19,658 bases of DNA from a virus: UHGV virus genome UHGV-0171543. One strand, 5' to 3'. The notes under the pieces are model-generated. The model worked only from the letters and a program-made list of their open reading frames with translations. It made no database searches and was not told where the DNA came from. Shown piece by piece: positions 10,045-15,964 of this stretch; position 1 is the first letter of the stretch; each line of letters opens with the position of its first letter. A program made the translations under genes and the position numbers.

Positions 10045-10626
10045 TTACTTGTTTTTGCCATGCTTATCCTGAGCGATAAGTTCATCCATAAGACTGTCTT
10101 TCTTCCCAGCAAACCTAATGTAGCACTCATTTCTATAGCGTTCCGGGATAACAAAACGGTCGATTTCAGGATATCCAGTAGCAGAAGGTATCCGAATAAG
10201 AAGCCCTTTTTCGAGCAATGAGATTGCTTCAGGGCTTCCCTTTTCTGTCTTTAGCTGGTTATTCGCGGCTACAGCGAATGCCAAATACGCTCTTTCTCCA
10301 AGAGTTAACGAATCAAACAAATCTTGCACATATTTTTCTTCTTTAGATTTGCGCTTCTGAGCAGCGGATACCTCAATTCTTTCAGTCACAGCGTGATAAG
10401 CGGAATTAACAACACCGTTAAGCACATAGCTAACGCAGAACAACAGGATGTAATACATCCAATAATGAGGAAGGATTTCTGGATTATGCAGGTTTATCCA
10501 TTCTTTTACGCTTACCGGCATAACAATAATCAATATGATCAGGATGATTAGCATATGAATCAACTGTTTAAGTGTCATTCCTTGCAGGAAAAAATGCATT
10601 AGTTCCTGCCACCATGAGTTGTTCAT
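10045..10626 (-). CDS. sieB: Superinfection exclusion protein B
   Basis: 193-aa ORF opposite in orientation to N, with an N-terminal hydrophobic segment (LIHMLIILIILIIVMPV). Matches lambda SieB as recalled. Confidence 0.8.
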   Translation of the reverse strand: MNNSWWQELMHFFLQGMTLKQLIHMLIILIILIIVMPVSVKEWINLHNPEILPHYWMYYILLFCVSYVLNGVVNSAYHAVTERIEVSAAQKRKSKEEKYVQDLFDSLTLGERAYLAFAVAANNQLKTEKGSPEAISLLEKGLLIRIPSATGYPEIDRFVIPERYRNECYIRFAGKKDSLMDELIAQDKHGKNK

Positions 10627-11737: not shown

Positions 11738-12706
11738 ATGAGTGAAGTAACAGATTTAGTTGTTATTGAAAAAGCAAATGCAATGACTGTATTTCAGTCT
11801 GCCGACCAGATTGAAGAAATCCTTCAAAAGGTTGAACGTGAAGTTATGTCCTTTGTGCCTGATATCACAACGGCAAAGGGCAGAAAGGAGATCGCTTCTC
11901 TGGCGTATAAAGTTGCGCAGACGAAAACATATCTCGATGGTCTTGGCAAAGACCTTGTTGCTGAACTGAAGGAAATTCCAAAGCTAATTGATGCCAACCG
12001 CAAGACAGTGCGCGATCGCCTTGATGAACTGAAAGCCAAGGCACGCCAGCCTCTTACTGATTATGAAGAGGAACAGGCGCGGATTAAAGCCGAAGAAGAA
12101 GCTAAGGCAGCAGCTGAAGCTCTCGCAAAGCAAATTGAGTCTGACCATGAAATAGCGATTTTGATGGATCGCGAATTTGACCGCCAAAGAGAAGAGGCAA
12201 GACTCAAAGCGGAGCAGGAAAAGCGAGAGCATGAAGAACGCTTAAAAAGAGAAGCTGAAGAGAAAGCCAGAGCAGAAGCCGAAGCAAAGGCAAAAGCCGA
12301 AATTGAAGCAGCAGCAAGGCGAGAAGCAGAAGCTAAGGCCGCAGCGGAACGTGCAGAGCGTGAACGCATTGAAGCCGAGCAACGAGCACAGCGCGAAGCA
12401 AAAGAGGCAGCAGAACGAGCTGAAAGAGAAAAGCAGGCGGCAATTGAAGCAGAACGCCGAAAAGCACAGGAGGAGGCTGAACGAATCCGGCGCGAGGCTG
12501 AAGCAAAAGAGCAAGCCAGAATAGCAGAAGAAAAAAGAATCAAGGACGAAGAAGAGCGTAGAGCAAAGGATAAAGCTCACCGGAAAGAAGTAAATAACAA
12601 AATACTTGCTGACCTTATCAAGGTTGGCGCATCAGAAGATGTTGCTAAAAATATCATAACAGCCATCGTAAAAGGCGAAGTATTCGCAACAAAAATAACC
12701 TACTAA
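11738..12706 (+). CDS. Hypothetical protein with a long K/E/A/R-rich low-complexity coiled-coil core between N- and C-terminal domains
   Basis: 322-aa ORF with GGAGG RBS. The central region of roughly 170 aa is an EAEAKAKAE/AERAERE-type charged repeat; the flanks are ordinary sequence. The repetitive DNA creates spurious ORFs on the opposite strand. Confidence 0.65.
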   Translation: MSEVTDLVVIEKANAMTVFQSADQIEEILQKVEREVMSFVPDITTAKGRKEIASLAYKVAQTKTYLDGLGKDLVAELKEIPKLIDANRKTVRDRLDELKAKARQPLTDYEEEQARIKAEEEAKAAAEALAKQIESDHEIAILMDREFDRQREEARLKAEQEKREHEERLKREAEEKARAEAEAKAKAEIEAAARREAEAKAAAERAERERIEAEQRAQREAKEAAERAEREKQAAIEAERRKAQEEAERIRREAEAKEQARIAEEKRIKDEEERRAKDKAHRKEVNNKILADLIKVGASEDVAKNIITAIVKGEVFATKITY

Positions 12707-12729
12707 TAAACCAACATAAGGAACCACCC

Positions 12730-12861
12730 ATGATTTACGCAATCGCGGGAGGCGCTCGCATGGGTGCCTTCCAACTAAATGAATCTTTACTTGAACGAAT
12801 CACCCGTAAATTACGTGACGGATGGAAAAGAGTTGAGGTCTTATTATGCGCAATGAAATAG
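12730..12861 (+). CDS. cIII: CIII-like protein (FtsH/HflB inhibitor), short allele
   Basis: 43-aa ORF, below the ORF-track cutoff, with AAGGA RBS. Contains ESLLERITRKLRDGWKR, the conserved central helix of lambda CIII as recalled. Confidence 0.75.
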   Translation: MIYAIAGGARMGAFQLNESLLERITRKLRDGWKRVEVLLCAMK

Positions 12862-12998
12862 CCATCAATCACCAGATGCTTCGTGCTGCACAGAACAAAG
12901 CAGTAATAGCCCGATTTATTGGTGATTCAAAAATGTGGCTTGAAGCAAATAAAGCGATGAAATCAGCTATCAACCTTCCGTGGTATCGCAGGAAATGA
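12846..12998 (+). CDS. kil: Kil-like protein (putative host cell-division inhibitor)
   Basis: 50-aa ORF overlapping the cIII end. The segment IARFIGDSKMWLEA resembles what I recall of lambda Kil (IATFIGDEKMFREA). Position after cIII fits. Confidence 0.5.
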   Translation: MRNEIAINHQMLRAAQNKAVIARFIGDSKMWLEANKAMKSAINLPWYRRK

Positions 12999-13165
12999 GT
13001 TTTACAGATAACTGGTCAGACGAAGAATTCATTCGTCAGATGAAAGAATTAATCGGTAACGAAGGAGATATTCATGTCACTTGCAACCACAGTGAAGGAG
13101 AGCAAGTTACAGAGACGCATGTACACGCAGCAGGCGTTAATGTATCGCCAGAAGGGAGATCGTGA
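12995..13165 (+). CDS. Small hypothetical protein
   Basis: ATG at 12995 overlaps the kil stop (ATGA), giving 56 aa (MSFTDNWSDEEFIRQMKELIGNEGDIHV...). The ORF track begins it at an upstream GTG (12980). Confidence 0.4.
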   Translation: MSFTDNWSDEEFIRQMKELIGNEGDIHVTCNHSEGEQVTETHVHAAGVNVSPEGRS

Positions 13166-13252
13166 AGGTGTTCGCGTATTTTTAAATGCGGCAAAGACTG
13201 AAGTATTAAATCAGCGTTATTTCCTTGGGCCGTGTCCATTCTGAGGTGAATT

Positions 13253-13960
13253 ATGGATTTGAATAAATTCGATGAGCCATTCAGCCCTGAAGATATCGAA
13301 TGGCGAATACAGCAAAGCGGTAAAACACGCGATGGCAAAGTGTGGGCTATGGTGCTGGCTTATGTCACGAACCGGGCAATCATGAAACGCCTGGACGATG
13401 TTTGCGGCAAAGCAGGATGGCGCAATGAATACCGCGATATTCCCAACAACGGCGGCGTTGAATGCGGCATATCAATCAGGATTGATTCCGAATGGGTAAC
13501 CAAATGGGATGCTGCTGAAAACACGCAGGTAGAAGCCGTCAAAGGTGGTCGTTCCGGTGCAATGAAGCGCGCTGCCGTTCAGTGGGGAATCGGTCGGTAT
13601 CTGTATAACCTTGAGGAAGGTTTCGCACAAACATCTCTCGATAAAAAGCAGGGATGGCACAGGGCAAAACTCAAGGATGGAACAGGATTTTACTGGCTCC
13701 CTCCATCGCTGCCGGGATGGGCAATCCCAACATCAGATAACAAACCATCACCAGAAAATACCAACCAGAAATCTCCATCGGTTGACTGCGAACAAATCCT
13801 GAAAGACTTCAGCGATTATGCGTCAACAGAAACTGACAAGAAAAAACTCATCGAGCGTTATCAGCGTGACTGGCAATTAATGGCTGGTAACGAGGAGGCG
13901 CAGGCTAAATGCGTTCAGGTAATGAACATCAGAGTTAACGAACTAAAACAGGCGGCATAA
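13253..13960 (+). CDS. Rad52-family single-strand annealing protein (Sak-like core) with Erf-like C-terminal tail
   Basis: 235-aa ORF with GAGGTGA RBS. Rad52/Sak-type motif GGVECGISIRIDSEW...AVKGGRSGAMKRAAVQWGIGRYLYNLEE. The C-terminal segment ETDKKKLIERYQRDWQL...CVQVMNIRVNELKQAA resembles the P22 Erf C-terminus as recalled. Confidence 0.8.
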   Translation: MDLNKFDEPFSPEDIEWRIQQSGKTRDGKVWAMVLAYVTNRAIMKRLDDVCGKAGWRNEYRDIPNNGGVECGISIRIDSEWVTKWDAAENTQVEAVKGGRSGAMKRAAVQWGIGRYLYNLEEGFAQTSLDKKQGWHRAKLKDGTGFYWLPPSLPGWAIPTSDNKPSPENTNQKSPSVDCEQILKDFSDYASTETDKKKLIERYQRDWQLMAGNEEAQAKCVQVMNIRVNELKQAA

Positions 13961-14434
13961 ATGGGAAGTAGAGGCGTAAATAAGGTGATCATTATTGGTC
14001 GCCTTGGGCATGATCCAGAAATCAGATATTCACCATCAGGAACGGCATTTGCAAACCTTACAGTTGCTACGTCAGAACAATGGCGTGATAAGCAAACTGG
14101 AGAGCAAAAGGAGCAGACGGAGTGGCACCGCGTGGTAATGAGCGGGAAACTGGCAGAAATTGCCAGCGAATATCTGCGAAAAGGCTCTGAGGTTTATCTT
14201 GAAGGCAAATTGCGGACAAGAAAATGGCAGGATCAAAGCGGACAGGATCGGTTCACTACCGAAGTTATCGTGGGCGTTGGTGGAACCATGCAAATGCTTG
14301 GTGGCAAGCAAGGAGGAAATGAACAGTCTTCACCTCAGCGAAATAACGGTCAGCAACAAAGACAGCAACCTCAGCAGCAAGGGAATCACAGCGAACCACC
14401 TATGAACTTCGACGATTCGGATATTCCGTTCTAG
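13961..14434 (+). CDS. ssb: Single-stranded DNA-binding protein
   Basis: 157-aa ORF starting at the ATG immediately after the annealing-protein stop. OB-fold-like N-terminal region, Gly/Gln-rich linker, acidic C-terminal tail DDSDIPF. Confidence 0.9.
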
Positions 14435-14443
14435 GAGCTGAAT

Positions 14444-14923
14444 ATGAAAATCTGCTCAAGATGCCATCAACAGAAGGAAGAAAGGGACTTTCAAATCAGA
14501 AGAGCATCCAGAGATGGATTAACTGCCGCTTGCCGGGCTTGCCTGGCTGAATACGACAAAGAGCGCGCGGGATTGCCACATCGAGTATCAGCAAGGAGAG
14601 AATATCAATCATCGGAACGCGGCAGAGAACGGTGTAACGCAGCCAAAAAGCGGTTCATTCAGAGCAACCCATGGAAAAGAAAAGCCCACATCATCGTGGG
14701 TAATTTTTTGCGCGACGGTAAGCTAATCCGACCACCACAATGTGAGTGCTGCGGATCAGAATGTAAACCACAGGCGCACCACTGCGACTACAGCAAACCA
14801 ACCGATGTGATGTGGCTCTGCAAGTCATGTCATGTCGAGTGGCACAAACATAACAAACCTATCTACCCAGACGAGGAGCCAGTAACTCTCCCCTTCCCTC
14901 GTCACGCTATTCACGCAATTTAA
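14444..14923 (+). CDS. Putative HNH endonuclease with N-terminal zinc ribbon
   Basis: 159-aa ORF. N-terminal CSRCH...CRAC and C-terminal CECCGSEC...AHHCDYSKPTDVMWLCKSCHVEWH fit an HNH (His-Asn-His) nuclease motif with Cys ligands. Confidence 0.6.
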   Translation: MKICSRCHQQKEERDFQIRRASRDGLTAACRACLAEYDKERAGLPHRVSARREYQSSERGRERCNAAKKRFIQSNPWKRKAHIIVGNFLRDGKLIRPPQCECCGSECKPQAHHCDYSKPTDVMWLCKSCHVEWHKHNKPIYPDEEPVTLPFPRHAIHAI

Positions 14924-14936
14924 TCAGGAGAAAATC

Positions 14937-15230
14937 ATGCCAGCGCCTCTGTATGGTGCGGACGACGCGCGCCGCTGTTCCGGCAATTCCGTATCGGAGG
15001 TGCTGGATAAATTCAGAAAAAACTACGATCGGATAATGTCGCTACCGCAGGAAACGAAAGAGGAAAAGGAATTTCGCCACTGTATATGGCTTGCAGAGAA
15101 AGAAGAACGCGAGCGAATTTACCAGACATCAATCCGACCATTCCGCAAAGCCACATATACCCACTTCCCTGAAATTGACCCGCGCCTGCGTAATTACCGC
15201 TCACGCTATGGTGCTATCAGTAATGACTGA
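14937..15230 (+). CDS. Hypothetical protein
   Basis: 97-aa ORF with GGAGAAAA upstream, in the same operon. No recognised motif. Confidence 0.5.
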
Positions 15231-15403
15231 GGAATTTACCATGAGAGGACTTGCATACAATCCCGGCATTCTTCCGGCAGAAATGATTATTCGCCAACGC
15301 GTAAAGCCAATGCCATCGAGAGAGGAATTGCTTAAGAGAAATTCTTTTCCATCAGTGAATCAAACAAATATCTGAATACGATGTGGCGCAAAGGAGGCAA
15401 CCA

Positions 15404-15964
15404 GTGAGTGTAACGGTTGAAAAGATTGATGTGTTGTCATTCGTTATAACCGGTGCAGAGAGACTAGATCCGGTTCGAGTGATGATTGAAAACTACGAAC
15501 CTGGAAAGGGAAGAATCACCATCACCTGCTACGGAAAAGCGTGGACTGCGGCTTGGTTTGCTATGGGCGGTGATGATGTGCAGACGTTCATTAAGCGAGT
15601 CAGCAACGATTATCTAATCGACAATTTCGACCCTCAACTGCTAAGCACGGTCGACGATGACAACGATGCAAATCTGCTTTTCGTGAAGTCAGAAATCATA
15701 AAGTTACGAAGAGAGAGAGAAATAGACGTCGTACTGGCTCGCGAAATGTGGGACGAGGCGGAAAACGCCGATGACGTAAAAGAAAGCTGCTGCTGTTTCG
15801 GCGTCGGTAACAAACTACTGAATCTCTTTGGTGATGATCCGTGGTATGCCAACTGGCCAACGATACCAAACCCGAAATACCAGTATCTGGAACGCGTACT
15901 TAATGCAGTGAGAGACGGTCTTAAGCAAATAGATGCAGGAGAGCAAAGCGATGAAAAACCGTAA
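15404..15964 (+). CDS. Hypothetical protein
   Basis: Start taken as GTG 15404, preceded by AAGGAGG at 15391..15397 (the ORF track uses an upstream GTG at 15383). About 186 aa, acidic. No recognised motif. Confidence 0.55.
   Translation: MSVTVEKIDVLSFVITGAERLDPVRVMIENYEPGKGRITITCYGKAWTAAWFAMGGDDVQTFIKRVSNDYLIDNFDPQLLSTVDDDNDANLLFVKSEIIKLRREREIDVVLAREMWDEAENADDVKESCCCFGVGNKLLNLFGDDPWYANWPTIPNPKYQYLERVLNAVRDGLKQIDAGEQSDEKP

Follow-up and report, generated by a model that had tools for sequence, protein, structure and literature searches.

Introduction

Phage P22 encodes its homologous recombination functions in the arf-erf-abc1-abc2 module, which follows cIII and kil in its operon. The cIII product inhibits FtsH in the establishment of lysogeny, and Kil is an inhibitor of host cell division. 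P22 Erf carries an annealing core of the ERF family (PF04404) and a C-terminal domain that Poteete et al. are reported to have defined as its second domain in 1983. A different core is found in Sak (ORF252) of Lactococcus phage ul36, a characterised phage protein homologous to human RAD52. Phage lambda accomplishes the same overall task from the same operon position using gam, bet and exo. Lambda Gam blocks RecBCD, and Exo loads the annealing protein Red-beta onto the strand during resection. Red-beta is built from an annealing core and, at its C-terminus, a small helical domain that docks on both the nuclease partner of Red-beta and the C-terminal tail of SSB (PMC11611040). What Abc2 does, and how the Red-beta C-terminal domain works with SSB, has been summarised (PMC12315714, PMC11611040).

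Domain exchange in phage annealing proteins is already known from the literature. An 'Erf domain swap' was described in the 2008 genome paper of phage ε34, which cites the Sf6 and ES18 genome papers as having noted the swap before. Horizontal exchange of one Erf domain was also reported in the 2020 genome paper of phage L (PMC8022706). Shuffling of partner-interaction domains was expressly left out of the analysis in a survey of lambdoid recombination modules published in 2025 (PMC12315714). Here, we describe an annealing protein encoded in a 19,658-nt stretch of viral DNA, hereafter the window, and compare it with its homologues. The new element is that, judged by this comparison of sequences, the Erf/Rad52 domain swap is recurrent.

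Results

A P22-type recombination module with Sf6-type genes

By its identity and architecture, region 12730-15230 of the window is very probably the homologous-recombination module in the early-left (pL) operon of a P22-like E. coli prophage (Sf6/ES18/epsilon34-type, Lederbergvirus). The module contains cIII, kil, orfA/orfB, the annealing protein gene, SSB, a putative HNH nuclease gene and abc2 in this order (Table 1), and outside it the window comprises a lambdoid early region with a DnaB-type helicase, cII, cro, cI, N, sieB, ral and integrase. Over positions 12700-15400, the window shares 98.2% DNA identity with phage N7 and 97.6% with Sf6, and both phages display an identical gene order. 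Around its genes 30-25, Shigella phage Sf6 has cIII, kil, two small ORFs, a 235-residue annealing protein, SSB, an endonuclease and abc2, arranged as in the window. The same module is present in Escherichia phages N7, IME10 and HK75 and in Salmonella phages ES18 and epsilon34, and allelic differences alone separate the window from these phages and Sf6. The genes 3' of abc2 are not alike among the window, Sf6 and N7. The module is thus a real and ordinary example of an already described Sf6-type recombination gene set. It carries little weight as a discovery because it has been sequenced in many phages and portions of it occur in 1344 of 5426 complete E. coli genomes (approximately a quarter); its genes have already been named by routine annotation.

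Table 1. Features of the recombination module and its upstream neighbour in the window
Feature	Position	Strand	Evidence and remarks
cIII	12730..12861	+	Pfam Lambda_CIII, E 4e-15; lambda cIII, tblastn 64% identity, E 2.6e-10; upstream neighbour of the module
kil	12846..12998	+	Pfam Lambda_Kil, E 1.7e-20
orfA, 56 aa (61 aa from alternative GTG start at 12980)	12995..13165	+	phrog_2123, E 5e-40; equivalent to Sf6 gp30 and HK97 gp42.1
orfB, 56 aa	13074..13244	+	phrog_1723, E 4.5e-34; equivalent to Sf6 gp29 and HK97 gp42
Annealing protein, N-terminal Rad52/Sak-type ssDNA-annealing core, aa 1-159	13253..13729	+	Pfam Rad52_Rad22, ul36 Sak, AlphaFold2, Foldseek
Annealing protein, linker, aa 160-179; disordered, unconserved, recombination joint	13730..13789	+	pLDDT, homologue identity, DNA homology
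Annealing protein, C-terminal domain, aa 180-235; 'Erf-type' three-helix bundle, presumed partner docking	13790..13957	+	P22 Erf match, AlphaFold2
Phage SSB, bacterial type, acidic C-terminal tip ...NFDDSDIPF	13961..14434	+	Pfam SSB (PF00436), E 1.7e-38; TIGR00621; E. coli SSB structures
HNH-type endonuclease-like gene, equivalent to Sf6 gp26	14444..14923	+	phrog_2340 'endonuclease', E 2.6e-47
abc2, P22-type anti-RecBCD	14937..15230	+	Pfam Anti-RecBCD_p2 (PF11043), E 5.6e-63, full length; P22 Abc2

An earlier note on this DNA described a recombination module swap in place of gam-bet-exo. The absence of Gam, Bet and Exo after cIII and kil is borne out, given that tblastn detected no homologue of these three lambda proteins in the whole window (best E 0.46), and the module does differ from the lambda set. 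However, the better reference is the arf-erf-abc1-abc2 module of P22, of which the set in the window is a variant. The window resembles P22 in the operon position after cIII and kil, in the C-terminal domain of the annealing protein (65% identity), in abc2 (93% identity) and presumably in reprogramming RecBCD rather than blocking it; unlike lambda Gam, the Abc2 protein of the window would modify RecBCD. It departs from P22 in the annealing core, which is of the Rad52/Sak family (PF04098) instead of ERF, in orfA/orfB, which stand against P22 arf, and in SSB and HNH, which stand against P22 abc1. Salmonella phages BTP1 and L share the chimeric 235-residue annealing protein with the window (87% DNA identity over the whole gene) but surround it with P22-type arf and abc1 neighbours and carry no phage SSB or HNH gene. 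Lactococcal phage ul36 has an SSB gene directly 3' of its annealing gene, as in the window, but its Sak ends in its own 90-residue tail, unrelated to the C-terminal region of the window protein, and it is without abc2.

Two-part architecture of the annealing protein

The annealing gene (13253-13960, + strand; TAA stop at 13958-13960) encodes a 235-residue protein, for which the earlier note had proposed a Rad52/Sak-type core, an Erf-like C-terminus of approximately 50 residues and an origin in domain shuffling. Domain-level alignment upholds all three proposals and reveals two families with a chimeric junction rather than one uniform family. The core matches Pfam Rad52_Rad22 (PF04098) over aa 4-136 (E 7e-26; 91.4 bits against a cut-off of 20.3) and is 58% identical to ul36 Sak over 155 aa (aa 6-159; E 2e-66). 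Residues 166-235 are 65% identical to aa 135-205 of P22 Erf (BLASTP, E 6e-30; 71 aligned positions with 70 window residues), and BLASTP finds no similarity to P22 Erf outside this segment. The protein has no match to Pfam ERF (PF04404) at E up to 0.1, whereas P22 Erf matches that family, which differs from that of the window core, over aa 5-146 with an E-value of 4.6e-46. At the DNA level, homology between the window and P22 is limited to cIII, positions 13790-13968 (79% identity to erf) and abc2. The DNA joint at approximately nt 13790 (aa 180) coincides with the start of the predicted three-helix C-terminal domain after the disordered linker.

The AlphaFold2 model built with a 57-sequence alignment (mean pLDDT 83), which was used because a single-sequence model was unusable (pLDDT 47), contains two domains and a disordered linker. 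The core is predicted with a pLDDT of ~90 over most of its length and dips to 61-76 near aa 61-100, and pLDDT falls below 50 at aa 162-175 in the linker. The C-terminal domain is predicted to form helices at aa 179-192, 196-209 and 214-234, with pLDDT values of 76-92 per 10-residue block, and R227 and E230 mark a conserved surface on it. In a Foldseek search with the whole model, in which the core dominates, the top 16 PDB matches are Mgm101 and human RAD52 with probabilities of 0.91-1.0; the matches are modest by E-value (2e-3 to 3e-2) and TM-score (0.3-0.44), since a single chain that includes an additional domain was compared. Linker identity drops to 0-30% among homologues once overall identity is below ~85%.

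Given the separate, highly significant matches to two families and the sharp boundary at both the protein and DNA levels, the annealing protein is a true chimera, with a Rad52/Sak core and an Erf-type C-terminal domain joined by domain shuffling. RefSeq and PHROGs label the whole protein an 'Erf-like ssDNA annealing protein', which would suit membership in a single family with a tail that resembles Erf by chance or low complexity, but the two matches and the confinement of the 79% identity to the 3' part of the gene refute this reading, and the label originates in a PHROG built by remote-homology clustering. This common label is wrong for the Rad52/Sak annealing core; it misleads because the core has no ERF match and the Erf similarity is restricted to aa 166-235.

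Recurrence of the domain swap

The recurrence of the swap was assessed using 111 homologues with a Rad52 core and 119 with an ERF core, whose C-terminal domains were clustered at 70% identity. Four clusters hold both ERF-type and Rad52-type cores, and identity across core types reaches 98%. Homologue P0046 has a core that is almost exactly that of the window but a different C-terminal domain, which is 92% identical to that of the ERF-core protein P0235 (BLASTP, 66 aa) and 98% identical over the last 58 aa. Between P22 and BTP1, homology runs up to the start codon of erf and resumes at Erf aa 150 (BTP1 aa 180), from where it extends across abc1 and abc2; the annealing core alone has been replaced. 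The C-terminal domain is conserved across enterobacterial homologues, with 26-98% identity compared with 69-99% for the core. An exhaustive search of representatives with a 60-residue domain query found the domain on ERF as well as on Rad52 fragments, with only 14 matches because one protein represents each cluster; a word-indexed search with the 70-residue domain returned short fragments only and was uninformative on cores. On this sequence record, core and C-terminal domain have been exchanged at the linker repeatedly among enterobacterial prophages.

SSB, HNH and abc2 genes

The phage SSB begins at the codon after the annealing gene, as the earlier note had read it, with its start directly behind the TAA stop. 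It has an OB-fold SSB domain, scores 181.8 bits against TIGR00621 (cut-off 53.95) and matches E. coli SSB structures (1eqq/4mz9) with an E-value of 5e-63, and its tip aligns with PPMDFDDDIPF of 7f2n, the top-scoring SSB chain. The HNH-type gene is an optional member of the module, being present in 20 of 73 related loci and missing from the 53 otherwise similar ones. Its ORF has no Pfam or NCBIfam match, and the Cys pairs and HH...H...H motif in its translation were recognised by eye only.

What is the RecBCD modulator of the module? The earlier statement that no RecBCD inhibitor is evident is wrong, since abc2 lies ~500 bp past the end of SSB at 14434, three genes 3' of the annealing gene and outside the coordinates then considered. 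The window protein covers 97 of 97 positions of PF11043 (209.6 bits; cut-off 25) and is 93% identical to P22 Abc2. From sequence, the predicted RecBCD modulator of the module is abc2. Both the phage SSB and abc2 accompany the annealing protein in all 73 related IMG/VR loci with enough flank.

Discussion

A working scheme for the module can be drawn from P22 genetics and biochemistry. Abc2 would bind the RecC subunit and stop the response of RecBCD to Chi, and the Abc2-modified host RecBCD would serve as the end-resection engine of the phage. The resulting single strand would be coated by phage or host SSB, and oligomers of the annealing protein, assumed to be rings like those of Rad52 and Sak, would pair the coated strand with a complementary one. 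The C-terminal domain would serve as an adaptor, docking the annealing core onto a partner. The least certain step is the identity of this partner, for which the acidic C-terminal tip of SSB is our most likely candidate, put forward tentatively and at less than even confidence. Docking on the SSB tip is plausible by analogy with the C-terminal domain of lambda Red-beta, which is its sole basis.

The analogy does not extend to sequence. [quoted passage not shown] The SSB tip varies very little among enterobacteria, and the C-terminal domain is more variable than the core; a partner that itself varies would match this pattern better than SSB does. In addition, tail and phage SSB gene do not always go together, given that P22 and BTP1 have the former without the latter.

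A broader reading, possible but doubtful, is that the three-helix domain is a portable partner-docking cassette that is restricted to Enterobacterales and has been exchanged at least 3-4 times between ERF and Rad52/Sak cores, and that its specificity, for example for the SSB tip or hijacked RecBCD, sets the usable hosts of the annealing core, which the core would not do by itself. The swappable domain offers a natural experiment on the host specificity of phage annealing proteins, with a bearing on the design of recombineering tools once the partner is identified experimentally.

Docking of the C-terminal domain on Abc2-modified RecBCD or on Abc2 itself, with the annealing protein loaded during resection in the way that lambda Exo loads Red-beta and SSB not the primary partner, is an unlikely alternative with several points in its favour. 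The abc2 gene is found at all 73 E. coli or IMG/VR loci that have the annealing protein and sufficient flanking sequence. P22, BTP1 and the window pair the type-A C-terminal domain with abc2 while the core, the upstream small gene and the downstream gene differ, and in Red-beta the site on the C-terminal domain that binds the nuclease overlaps the one for SSB (PMC11611040). However, the co-occurrence in E. coli may merely be linkage within one phage lineage. Moreover, tblastn detects no Abc2 within 5 kb of the homologues in species representatives of Enterobacter, Lelliottia, Pantoea, Rahnella, Yersinia and Symbiopectobacterium, although it detects the C-terminal domain in only 6 of these 17 loci, despite the conservation of the domain across enterobacterial homologues. 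Abc2, Arf, orfB, abc1, HNH and the phage SSB are each missing from some loci that retain the domain, and no phage gene that always travels with the domain was found outside the E. coli lineage.

A small upstream protein, namely Arf in P22 and orfB and/or orfA here, could instead partner the C-terminal domain as an accessory factor tuned to it. A small gene is always located directly 5' of the annealing gene (resembling Arf at loci L090-L092 and L102, and orfB at L095, L099 and L103 as in the window), and P22 Arf aids recombination (PMC12315714). We nevertheless regard this alternative as quite improbable, because one type of C-terminal domain occurs with Arf in P22 and BTP1 and with orfA/orfB in the window, because Arf and orfB are unrelated in sequence, and because orfA and orfB are both absent from 7 of 73 loci whose annealing protein is at least 99% identical to that of the window.

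The one or two small ORFs that the earlier note saw between kil and the annealing gene are two, and they overlap by 92 nt in different frames. Both occupy the position of P22 arf, and orfB is a positional alternative to arf directly 5' of the annealing gene. Homology to Arf was rejected: neither ORF matches Pfam Phage_Arf (PF17585) at E up to 0.1, P22 Arf itself matches this family with an E-value of 1.9e-35, and orfA has only a 7-residue motif ('SDEEFI'; E 0.013) in common with Arf. The earlier note had also nominated the ORFs (12995-13244) as candidate RecBCD inhibitors. Their position in the module and lack of an assigned function are all that favour this role, which is highly improbable and unnecessary in view of a bona fide anti-RecBCD gene, abc2, whose product closely matches the characterised P22 protein; the ORFs have no match to the Gam, GamL, Abc2 or MuGam families in Pfam, PHROGs and NCBIfam, and arf, whose site they occupy, does not belong to the anti-RecBCD genes. 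In the non-overlapping part of orfA, variable sites per codon position number [5,3,9], a weak third-position bias, and substitutions in the overlap lie mostly at third positions of orfB ([7,3,13]). orfB is kept at 41-50% identity directly 5' of the annealing gene in Pantoea, Sodalis and another Enterobacterales genome.

Results

The module is a lambdoid early-left (pL) arrangement (table) in which the SSB start codon follows the TAA stop of the annealing-protein gene with no spacer. A tblastn search found no homologue of λ Gam, Bet or Exo anywhere in the window (best E-value 0.46). Gene calls, Pfam matches and this search agree with everything that the earlier note reported as seen in the sequence. 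The remainder of the window belongs to a lambdoid early region with DnaB-type helicase, cII, cro, cI-type repressor, N, sieB and ral genes, and an integrase gene lies at its far end.

Features of the recombination module and neighbouring genes
Feature	Coordinates	Strand	Match or remark
sieB (superinfection exclusion)	10045-10626	-	Pfam SieB E 1.4e-25
322-aa protein	11738-12706		Sf6 gp33 equivalent, phrog_1376
cIII	12730-12861	+	Pfam E 4e-15
kil	12846-12998	+	Pfam E 1.7e-20
orfA, 56 aa	12995-13165	+	alternative GTG start at 12980
orfB, 56 aa	13074-13244	+	overlaps orfA
Annealing protein, 235 aa	13253-13960	+	Pfam Rad52_Rad22 E 7e-26, aa 4-136
SSB, 157 aa	13961-14434	+	Pfam SSB E 1.7e-38
HNH-like endonuclease gene, 159-aa ORF	14444-14923	+	PHROGs "endonuclease"
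abc2, 97 aa	14937-15230	+	Pfam Anti-RecBCD_p2 E 5.6e-63, full length
193-aa ORF, function unknown	15383-15964

Minor features flank the module. As in P22, sieB lies on the opposite strand inside the pL operon, between N and ral. The 322-residue protein has no match in Pfam or NCBIfam; its long middle part, rich in Glu, Ala, Arg and Lys, is a likely coiled coil and accounts for the pronounced AT skew at 11.5-13 kb, and many Enterobacterales prophages keep its gene upstream of cIII. A second, weak tblastn match to λ cIII (39% over 28 aa, E 5e-4) at 15848-15931 is in frame with the C-terminal part of the 193-residue ORF. By eye, its motif LER...RDG.K.ID looks similar to the cIII central helix, and the match may be due to chance or to a cIII-like FtsH-binding helix.

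Across 12700-15400, DNA identity is 98.2% with Escherichia phage N7 and 97.6% with both Shigella phage Sf6 and phage IME10. Gene order is conserved, and Sf6 genes 30 to 25 correspond one-to-one to orfA, orfB and the genes for the annealing protein, SSB, endonuclease and Abc2. Of 5426 complete E. coli genomes, 1344 contain parts of the module and 97 the full arrangement, and at least 575 confirmed IMG/VR stretches encode a relative. RefSeq already supplies the names "Rad52/Rad22 family DNA repair protein", "ssb" and "phage anti-RecBCD protein". Among the 73 IMG/VR loci with enough flank and an annealing protein at least 99% identical to that of the window, SSB and abc2 are both present in all, orfA and orfB in 66, and the HNH gene in 20. 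The HNH-like gene, which lies between SSB and abc2, has the behaviour of an insert that is optional or mobile. Some relatives, namely mEp235, mEpX2 and some E. coli prophages, have a 3'-5' exonuclease gene there instead.

The chimeric nature of the annealing protein, proposed in the earlier note, is borne out by separate Sak and Erf matches in BLASTP and by a sharp joint at the DNA level. Residues 6-159 match the Sak protein of lactococcal phage ul36 (58% identity, E 2e-66) with no alignment beyond, and only residues 166-235 match P22 Erf (its residues 135-205; 65% identity, E 6e-30). The Pfam ERF family, which covers P22 Erf residues 5-146, is distinct from the Rad52_Rad22 family of the window protein. 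DNA similarity between the window and P22 is confined to three places: cIII (12712-12828), 13790-13968 (79%) and abc2 (14927-15382; 85%). An AlphaFold2 model (57 homologues; mean pLDDT 83) predicts a folded N-terminal domain, a disordered linker (residues 162-175, pLDDT <50) and a C-terminal three-helix bundle (helices 179-192, 196-209 and 214-234), and the DNA joint near nt 13790 (residue 180) falls where the first helix of this bundle begins. Foldseek matches yeast Mgm101 and human RAD52 to the model with probability ~1, at modest E-values from 2e-3 up. The name 'Erf-like ssDNA annealing protein' (phrog_1097, RefSeq) covers Rad52/Sak-core proteins; 'Erf-like' is warranted solely by the common C-terminal domain and is therefore misleading in family-level surveys.

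Is this exchange of domains a single event? In P22 and Salmonella phage BTP1, DNA homology reaches the last base of arf, the annealing cores are unrelated, and homology is back from Erf residue 150 (BTP1 residue 180) through abc1 and abc2; in this pair, the annealing core alone was replaced. The last 58 residues of 111 full-length Rad52-core homologues (all Pfam PF04098) and 119 ERF-core homologues (all PF04404) were aligned and clustered at 70% identity. Four C-terminal-domain clusters mix the two core types, and identity between proteins of different core type is as high as 98% for the homologues P0046 and P0235 and 95% for P0034 and P0221. P0046 combines a core almost exactly that of the window with a different C-terminal domain, common to Escherichia ERF-core proteins. 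Judged from these alignments, the swap between annealing cores and C-terminal domains is recurrent. Rad52-core homologues are 69-99% identical to the window protein in the core and 26-98% in the C-terminal domain, and linker conservation is lost below ~85% overall identity.

In GTDB (one genome per species), full-length matches that include the C-terminal domain occur almost only in Enterobacterales-labelled contigs. The two exceptions are JAFADF010000066.1 ('Actinomycetes MAG', L086), whose proteins are 99-100% identical to those of the window (orfA/orfB 82-88%), and CACSKA010000001.1 ('Chryseobacterium sp.', L090), whose annealing protein is 78% identical; both are probably enterobacterial prophage DNA, through mis-binning or contamination. 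The core alone is found at 47-60% identity over ~150-200 residues in Gemmatimonadota, Deltaproteobacteria, Lactococcus, Bacillus and candidate phyla (loci L108-L165), with a different C-terminal region in each. Given these distributions, the core is widespread and the C-terminal domain is an addition to it confined to one lineage. The conservation of the Sak/Rad52 annealing core is unusually high for a phage protein.

The statement "No RecBCD inhibitor is evident" in the earlier note is false, given that abc2 starts 503 bp past the end of the region it described (12995-14434) and its product shares 93% identity with the characterised Abc2 of P22. The observation in that note is accurate and its interpretation half right: the chimera stands, and the missing inhibitor does not. 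Its candidates for that role, orfA and orfB, are rejected, as they match no anti-RecBCD family and abc2 is present. The two ORFs occupy the position of P22 arf and do not match Arf; they overlap by 92 nt in different frames, and almost all of 57 distinct sequence variants keep both reading frames open. Substitutions in the overlap concentrate at the third codon positions of orfB (7, 3, 13), and in other genera a 41-50% identical orfB immediately precedes the annealing-protein gene, so that orfB appears to be a genuine gene. The case for orfA is weaker; in a second allele, orfA stops four codons sooner. The 'recombinase' label on both ORFs (PHROGs, RefSeq) is without evident basis.

Discussion

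The module is better described as a variant of the P22 arf-erf-abc1-abc2 module that keeps the C-terminal domain and abc2 but has orfA/orfB instead of arf, a Rad52/Sak core instead of the ERF core, and SSB and HNH genes instead of abc1. It is well known and abundant, and earlier papers have described its chimeric annealing protein. The authors of the ε34 genome paper describe such a domain swap for gene 36 and find it consistent with the two-domain Erf structure (Poteete et al. 1983). The phage L paper reports 89% identity over the last 55 residues versus 13% in the N-terminal part and explains the contrast by one domain having been exchanged horizontally (PMC8022706). A 2025 survey of 325 lambdoid phages catalogues such modules, including the Sf6 and ES18 SSB and HNH genes, and regards shuffling of partner-interaction domains as likely but "beyond the scope" (PMC12315714).

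With the components identified here, a pathway can be drawn from P22 work (PMC12315714) and from the studies of Murphy and Poteete. Abc2 would bind RecC and block the Chi response, so that RecBCD, rather than destroying the phage, would resect ends on its behalf. Phage or host SSB would then coat the single strand, and annealing-protein oligomers, assumed to be rings like those of Rad52 and Sak, would pair it with its complement. Poteete reportedly found the Erf C-terminal domain dispensable for ring formation and DNA binding, yet needed in vivo.

What is the partner of this portable domain? By analogy with λ Redβ, the domain would act as a docking adaptor, and we tentatively favor the SSB tip as its possible docking site, given that in ul36 and most enterobacterial loci an SSB gene comes immediately after the annealing-protein gene and that the phage SSB carries a host-type tip (...DDSDIPF). 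However, the domain has no sequence relationship to the Redβ domain and its variability exceeds what so constant a partner as the SSB tip would predict. Docking on RecBCD-Abc2 is unlikely: abc2 is retained beside the domain in P22 and here, but Abc2 is undetectable near the domain in other genera. Docking on Arf or orfB is still less probable, as the two alternate beside the annealing-protein gene. P22 and BTP1 lack a phage SSB. Because the C-terminal domain occurs without each phage-encoded candidate, a host factor is the most economical partner, a further point in favor of SSB.
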